Assembly (NCBI GenBank): GCA_054600435.1
Contig: BAAIJX010000013.1
Coordinates: 62,001-126,000 of the forward strand
Direction of reading: 5' to 3'
Source: Neophaeotheca triangularis
Taxonomy: Eukaryota
DNA length: 64,000 bases
Each line of letters starts with the position of its first letter. Within the stretch, counting starts at the first letter, position 1. Shown piece after piece: positions 14,310 through 55,087 of the stretch. The notes beneath the pieces are model-generated. The model made no database searches, was not told the DNA's origin, and saw only the letters and a program-made list of their open reading frames with translations. A program made the position numbers and the translations under genes.

Positions 14310-14428
14310 ACATACGACCACAGCTCAGTGAATCTAAGGCATCCCGTCCGCTCTGCCATATTCAAGCACTGAAGCGGGTGACTAGTACTACGGTGGGTGA
14401 CCACGTGGGAATCCCACCTGTTGTATGT
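14310..14428 (+). rRNA. Dispersed 5S rRNA gene (119 nt)
   Basis: ACATACGACCA...CCCGTCCGCTC...TAGTA...GGTGGGTGACCAC...CTGTTGTATGT; ends pair as helix I; TATA-like ATATATAT about 25-29 nt upstream. Confidence 0.93.
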
Positions 14429-14452
14429 TTTTTTTATTTTTTGGATTTTTTT
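14428..14452 (+). terminator. RNA polymerase III oligo-T terminator of the 5S gene
   Basis: TTTTTTTTATTTTTTGGATTTTTTT immediately after the 5S 3' end. Confidence 0.85.
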
Positions 14453-53229: not shown

Positions 53230-53344
53230 CGAGACAGGGGATGAGAACTGGACGCGTCCCAAACCTGCGAGCAGCTTAAAGTGGGTACTAGATCGCCGGA
53301 ATCGTGCTGGGAGAGCATCAGAAGTGTGCCGCGAGTTCGTAGTG

Positions 53345-53374
53345 AAGAAGAAGAAGAAGAAGAAGAAGAAGAAG
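53345..53374. repeat. (GAA)n microsatellite between the convergent EFM5 and EMG1 genes
   Basis: About 10 consecutive GAA units. Confidence 0.85.
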
Positions 53375-53746
53375 CAAGCCTTGATGCCAATCGTTTCGTG
53401 TTCATAACTAGTTTTTGATACGCCTTCCAAGCACTCCCTTGATAGCCCTTTCGTATCCAACCCACCAACTGTTGGCCAAAAAAAAAGGTTAGTAAACTCG
53501 CGTGTCTCCTGGAACAAGTAGTCTGCCAGAGGTCCTGTTGAAGCTTCGAATGATGTTGCGCTCAGACAAAAAGCTTCCACAGTTCCCACGGCCGGGAGGG
53601 AAACCAGCACAGTGAAGAGCGTAGATGTTGCGATCGTGCTAGCTCACTTGTTTCATTCCACTGTGCCGGTCTTCCATACCCGCCTTCCTTATCCCTTGAA
53701 CCAACCGATAAACCGATATACCAACCAGACAATCATGTGTCAAGGC

Positions 53747-55087
53747 CTAGATCACATCCCAAGCATCTTCGGCGGCATGGCAGAATTTGCTGCAAGCAAC
53801 ACTGGCAGACAAGCTGAAGTTGCTGATGGAGATGGCGTCGTCTTTGAACTGATCTGCGAAAGTATCAGTGCCCTTTGCCATGGCACCTACGAAGACGCAG
53901 ATGCTCTCCTTGGAATCCAAGTTTTCGATGTAGTCGCGGCATTTCACAATAGGCGCGTCGAAGGACAGTGTTACCTTGCGGCAGTTGGGCGGCAGGTGGT
54001 CCGTAATGGGATTCTTAATGACTTTGAGCAGTTTCTCTTGCGAGGTCGTGGAACGGATAGAGAGTTTGTGGAGGAGCTGGACCATCAGACCAGCGAAGCG
54101 CTTGAAGGTACGAGGAATGCGAACTGTGGGCGAAACTTCGATGAGGACGCCTTTGGCGGTGTGAATGTAGATTTGGAGCTTGCCGGCTTTGTTGATGGGA
54201 GAATCGAGCAAGGTGAGGAGGCACTGGTTTTGGCATTAGCTTGTTTGTGTGCTCAGCGAAGTGGGCACGAATCGTCGCACCTGATGCGTAATATCCGGTC
54301 TCGCGTCACTAATGTCGCGGTTCATCTTCCTCATGACGCCAATGTGTTCATCGCTATTCAGCAGGCTGTACTTCTCGTCCTTCATGCCATTGCGGCCGCC
54401 GTAGGCAGCCTTGTATGTCTCGAGGCTTGCATTTGACAAGACAACGATGAGGCGTTTGGAGTCTTTGTCGCTGGCGGGGATGGGAACGTGCTGTTCTGCG
54501 ACGAGCGCAGGCAGCGAGGGTGGTGGGAGCGATTGTGTCTGTGTCCCTGCGGTAAAGGAAAAGGGCTGGTCAGCCATTTTTGCGCGGAACCTTGTTGAAA
54601 GGTGCTAAGCGGAGGAGTTGAAGAAGGGGTGGGTTTGCGAGCTTGGTGTCTGAAGCCGAGTCCAAGGTGCTGGAGGTGGAGTGGGAAGGGGAACGAGGGT
54701 GTATGATGTGTGCAAGGAAGGAAAGGTGCAGGGTCTGATGCGACAACAATGATAATGTAGGACGGCAAGCCGCGTCGGATTCGGTGGTTCCAAGCTTGTT
54801 CTGGAGGGAAGGGAGGGGCAATGCGGAAAAGCTGAAAAGCATGAATTTGGTAGAGCGACGGGGCAACGATGGGGGGATTTTGCACTCGACAAGACGACAA
54901 GACCCAGCGCGCCGGGAGGGGAGAGGGTGACGAGGCGAAATGGGGTCAACTAACTGATTCTCTTCGTATCTCTGCCCGAAGACGACGGTCTGCGGCCAAT
55001 GTACTCGGCGGATGCGTCAAGGAGACCCTGTTCGAGTTCTTGAGACTTTTGGAGCTTCTGCTCAAGTTCTTCTGGAGACGACGACAT
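53747..55087 (-). CDS. EMG1: 18S rRNA pseudouridine N1-methyltransferase EMG1/NEP1
   Basis: Exon 1 55087-54955 (MSSSPEEL...RDTKRI), intron 54954-54547 (GTTAGT..GCTGAC..CAG), intron 54280-54224; [46 protein letters not shown]. Confidence 0.93.

Follow-up and report, generated by a model that had tools for sequence, protein, structure and literature searches.

The window (the whole 64,000-nt stretch analysed here) carries on its minus strand an EMG1/NEP1 gene, the single match in the 25.4-Mb assembly, with both exons above the cut-off for Pfam PF03587. Exon 3 aligns with yeast Nep1 residues 95–252, the equivalents of Arg129, Arg132 and Arg136 being identical, and counting back from residue 95 places the R-P-D of exon 2 at 88–90, which supplies the equivalents of Arg88 and Asp90. 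The gene thus combines the PF03587 domain with these RNA-binding residues. Judged by the nearest named proteins and a tree, the host lies near Zymoseptoria, Cercospora and Cryoendolithus (~90% identity to the nearest named protein), and from the class labels of these genera we take it to be a Dothideomycete. The features of the locus are listed in Table 1. We also noted a dispersed 5S rRNA gene at 14310–14429 (+) and a (UUC)n run at about 53342–53375 (−), ~370 nt past the EMG1 stop.

Table 1. Features of the EMG1/NEP1 locus, in transcript order
Feature	Position	Strand	Remarks
Exon 1, coding part	54955..55087	-	44 codons and first base of the split Arg codon, ends K-R-I-|R; spliced junction in RNA contig
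Intron 1	54547..54954	-	408 nt, phase 1, 66% pyrimidine, GT...CAG; position conserved in orthologs
TAG met in exon-1 frame on intron retention	54950..54952	-	45-residue product
Upstream UUCAAC	54617..54622	-	no local stem
Branch-point-proximal hairpin	54589..54603	-	candidate Nep1 site; stem of 5 bp with U-A closing a UCAAC loop, or 7-nt loop UUCAACA
UUCAAC within this hairpin	54599-54594	-	
Intronic AUG in exon-2 frame	54575..54577	-	A at -3, G at +4; predicted 257-aa form without junction K-R-x-R
Predicted branch site GCUGAC	54569..54574	-	branch A at 54570, by consensus
Exon 2	54281..54546	-	Arg88 and Asp90 equivalents of yeast Nep1
Intron 2	54224..54280	-	57 nt, no YCAAC in this genome; skipped in RNA runs X2 and X4
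Exon 3 to stop codon	53747..54223	-	Arg129, Arg132 and Arg136 equivalents
3' site 1	53621..53638	-	GAU-CGCAAC-AUC hairpin at tip of long stem; counterpart of the first hairpin of the 3' element
3' site 2	53551..53564	-	second GCAAC loop, 72 nt after site 1 (full-element orthologs ~64-75)
3' site 3	53534..53544	-	UUCAACA, 90 nt after site 1 (orthologs ~83-97)

The preliminary description had singled out the long first intron, and on re-reading the sequence its coordinates for the 408-nt intron, both UUCAAC motifs, the hairpin, GCUGAC and the retained ATC AGT TAG were all correct. The long intron is real. RNA evidence consisted of contigs from four of the five listed runs (shares 0.11–0.24), which carry no levels, strand or start sites and whose uncovered parts have no evidential weight. 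In run X1 one contig, of depth 2, is missing exactly these 408 nt, though only 29 letters lie on its shorter side, which makes it weak alone, and the intron-less ortholog L008 joins its exons at the same codon as in its intron-bearing cluster. A second, unspliced X1 contig runs from 54601 through the acceptor without differences; its 30 exon-side letters fall one below our bridging rule and it may be DNA.

The two motifs had been thought remarkable at an expected hexamer count of about 0.1 per 408 nt. This estimate was too low: in 5000 dinucleotide shuffles of the C/U-rich intron, UUCAAC occurred 0.36 times and (C/U)UCAAC 0.70 times per intron. Because at least two occurrences arose in 4.7% (UUCAAC) and 15% ((C/U)UCAAC) of these shuffles, the mere presence of two motifs carries no significance. 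No local stem forms at the upstream motif, which is largely single-stranded in two of the three folding windows. The hairpin (54603–54589) reaches pair probabilities of 0.81–0.99 in all three windows, with an energy of only −2.4 kcal/mol by itself, and the whole intron folds no better than shuffles (z +0.66). A C/A-rich intron could have yielded a motif and a weak hairpin without function, an explanation that draws on the probability of 0.05–0.15 for the two motifs in this intron, the low hairpin energy and the shuffle-like fold. The significance of the hairpin rests on conservation, not on the single sequence of the window.

Orthologs were collected by a metagenome scan that listed at least 590 candidates, 159 relatives among them, of which the best 80 were kept; the sample is skewed to close kin and few classes. 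Two loci beginning inside exon 2 were dropped, and the remainder formed 52 clusters plus the window. Leaving out L001 (no intron 1) and L057 (too short) gave 50 intron-1 representatives drawn from the best 80 of the 159 relatives. Across all orthologs among these 80, intron 1 interrupts the same split Arg codon. L001 is a close relative that has intron 2 and keeps the 3' CAAC sites, and its missing intron 1 reflects either intron loss or a partly spliced cDNA.

The preliminary description had proposed that orthologous introns be aligned to see whether a YUCAAC hairpin is conserved near the branch point and whether its stem covaries, and the outcome was strongly positive. With branch points assigned by consensus, a YCAAC-loop hairpin of at least 3 stem pairs lies 15–40 nt before the predicted branch A, an interval chosen after the data were seen, in 25 of 50 introns against a mean of 0.32 and a maximum of 3 in 200 shuffles; at the same position, stems of at least 5 pairs occur in 18/50 against 0.05 in shuffles. 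Without recourse to the interval, 26 of 34 UYCAACA heptamers (window included) sit 21–29 nt from the branch A. The standard deviation of the hairpin spacing is 1.8 nt to the branch A versus 10.7 nt to an intronic AUG described below (26 rows), and this fixation to the branch A rather than to the AUG argues for a role in splicing. All 13 intron-bearing rows of the window's clade have the hairpin. A Sordariomycete/Leotiomycete-like clade of 9 rows has it in 8, the remaining row keeping the loop with one mismatch. Further carriers are L068, the L061 group and L028, which lies near Fonsecaea; the short-intron lichen-type clade and Penicillium-like rows lack it. Altogether it is missing in 25/50 sampled introns, including 10 of 32 long ones, which we count against a feedback function.

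The stem covaries. Twenty-seven rows were selected by loop letters only and 24 distinct rows were scored. Pairing at the two innermost variable positions is kept in 24/24 and 23/24 of them and involves four pair types at each; at the two positions further out it is kept in 19/24 and 18/24. The covariation score over these four pairs is 0.946, compared with 0.270 for shuffled and at most 0.280 for slid controls, and RNAalifold recovers the same stem. As the rows are related, these counts overstate independent events, and about six distinct stem types are represented. The loop-closing U-A pair is invariant and therefore gives no evidence of pairing, so the loop may be a 7-nt UYCAACA. Positional conservation, compensatory changes and the gene specificity documented below already largely refute an origin by chance, to which we give very little credence.

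The preliminary description had treated the two UUCAAC motifs as one unit. This does not hold in this genome, where the upstream motif is stemless, and only the hairpin motif is well supported; it does find an echo in nine ortholog representatives with a structured second CAAC hairpin (6–8-nt loop) 30–100 nt further upstream. The window's upstream UUCAAC is possibly a degenerate remnant of this upstream 6-nt-loop hairpin.

A second set of sites lies beyond the stop codon. Among the 44 stop-reaching representatives, 23 align over a ~165-nt element with four CAAC-type sites, and a model built from those 23 finds 7 more at E <0.001, giving 30/44 representatives from the best 80 of the 159 relatives, L075:3446-3611 and L061:3475-3646 among them. 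In most single folds three of the four sites fall in terminal loops and one is mostly paired. RNAalifold recovered the last hairpin only, and the other helices were set by hand; 86% of cells conform to the resulting structure of 24 pairs, against 37–48% in slid controls, and 9 pairs show changes on both sides. No such change occurs in helix 3, and the core of helix 1 is invariant. The element is complete in most sampled classes; it was not detected in Aureobasidium-like loci, and the window's lineage retains two or three of its sites. The window's 3' region folds better than shuffles (z −2.2). In 20 kb of the window, the covariance model gave the EMG1 remnant 8.6 bits (E 0.28), with the best match elsewhere (E 0.077); since this score is not significant, homology of the remnant is argued from motif and spacing only. 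The L045 sequence takes in the 3' element and is the sole sign of the element in mRNA. A 3'-UTR intron around the element was considered and rejected, as 28 loci offered no consistent donors or branch sites. Strong donor-like sites 8 nt past the stop in the lichen-type loci L026, L027, L029 and L034 suggest a short 3'-UTR intron upstream of the element.

To what could these loops bind? Nep1 recognises the consensus C/UUCAAC, best in hairpin loops, and is a dimer with two RNA sites (PMC2853112, PMC3064781). In the crystal, O2 is contacted at U5 and C7, U6 is flipped, and A8, A9 and C10 are read specifically; the crystallised loop is a 6-nt UUCAAC with a C-G closing pair (PMC3064781). Yeast Nep1 binds its target oligonucleotide at 6.3 uM (PMC3045603), and the archaeal enzyme binds the bare hexamer weakly (12.3 uM), a 3' GC extension being needed (PMC2853112 Table 1). 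The organism's own 18S rRNA reads CUCAACA at 1189 (the target loop) and CUUCAACG near 1567, and the intron hairpin loop matches this target context. Both window motifs fit the consensus, as do 21 of 27 aligned rows, the other 6 reading UCCAAC. Three properties count against Nep1 feedback here: the C at the flipped-U place in those 6/27 rows, off the published consensus; a predicted loop of 5 nt when an invariant A pairs with the first U, or of 7 nt when this pair is open, versus 6 nt in the crystal; and the absence of the 3' GC extension from the intron hairpin.

The composition of natural loops follows the crystal contacts. For AAC-containing loops on stems of at least 5 pairs, a pyrimidine occupies the U5 position in 35/42 intron-1 and 64/78 3'-region hairpins versus 83/165 in flanks, and C occupies the C7 position in 33/42 and 60/78 versus 48/165, the U6 position being free. 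Hairpin density is 3.28 per kb in intron 1 sense versus 0.20 antisense and 0.15–0.21 in flanks. An unbiased scan returned CAAC as the top loop 4-mer (16/106 intron-1 and 49/256 3'-region hairpins versus 18/2376 in flanks). A general splicing element was rejected, the loop motif preceding branch-like signals 60 times genome-wide against 55 in a permuted control. Among 30 fetched of these 60 matches, EMG1 alone has a contiguous 5-nt-loop stem of at least 4 bp, and one perfect-looking hairpin (L104) appears coding. On inspection, five other exact genome copies of the 13-nt hairpin had no obvious branch-plus-acceptor context. A snoRNA or other Rfam family in the intron or 3' region was likewise rejected: only the 5S rRNA reached the gathering score in the window, 12 ortholog loci gave nothing at E up to 1, and the conserved loops are sense to rRNA, not antisense, which speaks against snoRNA anatomy.

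This strand-confined enrichment bears on the idea that some other protein, such as a branch-point-type or other stem-loop binder, recognises the CAAC loops and that the match to the Nep1 target is incidental. Such a binder would accommodate the finding that only YAAC is near-invariant and that many 3' loops read ACCAAC, CACAAC, UACAAC or CAUAAC, off C/UUCAAC; some 3' CAAC-type loops presumably resemble branch-point sequences, which we counted on the same side. It is harder to reconcile with enrichment confined to the EMG1 transcript strand and with tolerated changes that sit where the crystal shows no base-specific contacts or only pyrimidine-O2 contacts, and we consider it improbable.

CAAC hairpins also occur at other splice signals of the gene. 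Intron 2, 46–149 nt long among 44 EMG1 representatives, contains 6 of them in 2.7 kb and none antisense. In L060 and L028 (last 20 nt of intron 2), and in intron 2 of L080 and L050, UUCAAC hairpins pair the branch point with the acceptor or cover the branch point or the donor; three of these four lack the intron-1 hairpin. Two short-intron loci carry a CAAC hairpin in the 5' leader, ~49 nt upstream of the donor in L058, where the stem takes in the first AUG, and ~85 nt upstream in L064. These positions help to weigh whether Nep1 bound at its sites, instead of exerting negative feedback, might favour splicing or export, or whether the sites might act as a reservoir or tether on which Nep1 is chaperoned or its dimer assembled co-translationally on its own mRNA. 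Several sites along one transcript would match the two RNA sites of the dimer; human EMG1 has to be chaperoned lest it precipitate on RNA (PMC5418833); and METTL16 promotes splicing via a similar hairpin (PMC8139829). The intron-2 hairpins of these four loci, however, would sequester branch point, acceptor or donor, which fits inhibition better, and a positive or tethering role seems to us rather unlikely.

The hairpin of the window is followed after 11 nt by an AUG in the exon-2 frame. Such an in-frame intronic AUG occurs in 32 of 32 complete introns longer than 105 nt versus 2 of 12 shorter ones (window included; best 80 of 159 relatives), at offsets from −7 to −67. Over the last 70 nt of 51 introns, AUGs are distributed 52:3:8 among the frames, and a purine stands at −3 of the intronic AUG in 30/32 cases versus 20/50 for upstream intronic AUGs; an open in-frame AUG is found in only 1/44 of the second introns. 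In this genome the branch site and the AUG are together predicted to form a small hairpin of their own (54556–54581, −). Splicing completes K[KR]x[KR] across the junction in 43/44 spliced forms (by script; L017 was mis-sliced at its contig start), and none of the short, AUG-initiated N-termini has it. We read the junction K-R-x-R motif as a putative nuclear localization signal. Import of human EMG1 is importin-dependent, in passages that do not use the term NLS (PMC5418833). From sequence comparison, translation from the conserved intronic AUG is predicted to give another form of Nep1 that lacks the junction K-R-x-R. Of 120 homologous proteins, 42 begin with the exon-1-type end and 67 with the intronic-type end, 11 being unclassified; these are predictions, and some of the 67 are read-through models.

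The preliminary description held that retention would give an immediate TAG and so probably nonsense-mediated decay. The TAG at intron nt 3 stands for the window, and the exon-1 frame meets an early stop on retention in 42/44 complete introns. A stop at nt 3 is found in only 3 of the 44, however, two introns read through in frame, and an in-frame downstream AUG follows in 34/44; conservation of this AUG in long introns suggests that decay need not be the sole outcome of retention. In L019, identical over exons 2–3 to the protein of Aureobasidium pullulans, and in L026, intron 1 is a multiple of three without a stop, so that retention would insert residues, not truncate the protein.

The intronic AUG is also present in 15 of 24 introns without the hairpin motif and thus tracks intron length, not the hairpin, and 22/32 long introns have further upstream AUGs; these two observations speak for an internal promoter more than for ribosomes that scan a retained intron. 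In the ortholog L045, 118 nt of intron 1 (its 3' part) are kept and intron 2 is missing, unlike in those of its nearest relatives whose sequence is long enough; L045 is either a cDNA of an intron-initiated form or a case of intron loss. Three origins suit L045 and the X1 contig with its end at 54601 equally well: an internal start, retention or DNA. Nep1 might bind the hairpin in the 5' leader of a short mRNA initiated within intron 1, with its main effect on translation or stability via the intronic AUG. The AUG distribution and its purine at −3, upstream AUGs that are not clearly depleted beyond ~70 nt, the retained 3' part of intron 1 together with the missing intron 2 in L045, the hairpin over the first start codon of L058 and the precedent of APE2 (PMC7491326) are all in keeping with this. 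It sits poorly with a hairpin spacing set by the branch A, with the L028 hairpin, which precedes no intronic AUG, and with intron-2 hairpins that have no AUG to control. We rate control of an intron-initiated mRNA as unlikely, if the most serious of the alternatives.

We favour, by a little, feedback by Nep1 through mimics of its rRNA target that act on intron-1 splicing, with the 3' cluster as a second tier. The intron-1 hairpin would be a decoy of the 18S rRNA target in the enzyme's own pre-mRNA. Nep1 dimers exceeding the supply of pre-ribosomes would bind it, alone or together with the second upstream CAAC hairpin, an arrangement that fits a dimer with two RNA sites. Bound Nep1 would hinder recognition of the branch point, and the long form, whose import-like K-R-x-R is completed only by splicing, would then fall. 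Unspliced or intron-initiated RNA would be decayed after an early stop or would yield short, K-R-x-R-less Nep1 from the intronic AUG. The cluster of CAAC hairpins past the stop may provide the second tier, through stability or translation. A fuller version of this feedback, which we put forward tentatively and would not expect to hold in all its parts, is a two-tier circuit in filamentous ascomycetes in which the hairpin at the branch point would divert expression from the long, nuclear-targeted form towards decay or a short form devoid of the import motif, and the four-site 3' element would tune stability. Free Nep1, and possibly SAM state, would report the 90S pre-ribosome load, and the short form may act in the cytoplasm.

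Feedback via rRNA mimics is known for ribosomal proteins. In yeast genes of the RPL7B and L32/RPL30 type, repression of splicing through a conserved structure that lies in the gene's own intron and binds the protein has been proposed or demonstrated (PMC12311795, PMC5640933). EMG1 resembles them as the gene of an rRNA-binding protein with a conserved, covarying structure in its own pre-mRNA near a splice signal. It differs in that the host encodes a modification enzyme and assembly factor, that the structure is a minimal hairpin fixed to the branch point, as a candidate binding site, and that an alternative start codon adjoins it. The conserved Pezizomycotina intron and UTR structures of Gao et al. 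2021 (PMC8216456) and Li and Breaker 2017 (PMC5640933), in the lysyl-tRNA synthetase intron, RPL12 and rpl7, are comparable as fungal elements with proposed autoregulation.

The METTL16/MAT2A system likewise has two hairpin tiers, one acting on an intron and a downstream cluster acting on stability (PMC10578476). The likeness lies in target-like hairpins of an RNA methyltransferase arranged in intronic and downstream tiers. METTL16/MAT2A is characterised by methylated substrates in a SAM-synthetase mRNA, which does not apply to EMG1: METTL16 methylates hairpins in the message of another protein, MAT2A, whereas the EMG1 host is the methyltransferase itself. Since archaeal Nep1 does not methylate U-containing oligonucleotides (PMC2853112 Table 1), the EMG1 hairpins would be dead-end decoys unless pseudouridylated.

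Two further systems share single aspects. P5SM imitates its model as a large structure, and the protein that binds it is not the product of its own host gene. It is a plant 5S rRNA mimic within the TFIIIA pre-mRNA and regulates alternative splicing (PMC12218528). EMG1 shares with it an rRNA mimic within a pre-mRNA, unlike it in being a 15-nt loop mimic in the gene of its presumed binder. In APE2 of budding yeasts, a conserved start codon late in intron 1 produces a form without the exon-1 targeting sequence, and an internal transcription start has been seen (PMC7491326). EMG1 has the same conserved in-frame AUG near the intron end, in all 32 long introns, dropping an exon-1 motif. The lost signal is mitochondrial in APE2 and NLS-like in EMG1, a conserved hairpin precedes the EMG1 AUG, and the internal start, seen in APE2, is hypothetical for EMG1.

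EMG1/NEP1 is unnamed in the main text of PMC8216456, in whose supplement the 3' element may equal a motif, and in the main text and three small supplementary files of PMC5640933. Titles and abstract openings in the literature searched, which took in few subscription papers, contained no report of EMG1/NEP1 autoregulation, intronic structure or isoforms. We conclude that the hairpin system is real and conserved, and apparently unreported. It would extend such feedback beyond the ribosomal-protein cases to Nep1/Emg1, an essential assembly factor and modification enzyme. EMG1 level has been proposed as the basis of Bowen-Conradi syndrome (PMC5418833), and a circuit controlling EMG1 dosage, here from fungal data only, would be of wider interest in this light. 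The natural hairpins resemble an evolutionary selection of Nep1 ligands, with a binding code Y-N-C-A-A-C in the loop that can be compared with the crystal structure. The second start codon predicts two Nep1 forms differing in their N-terminus, and public gene models are already divided between both ends.
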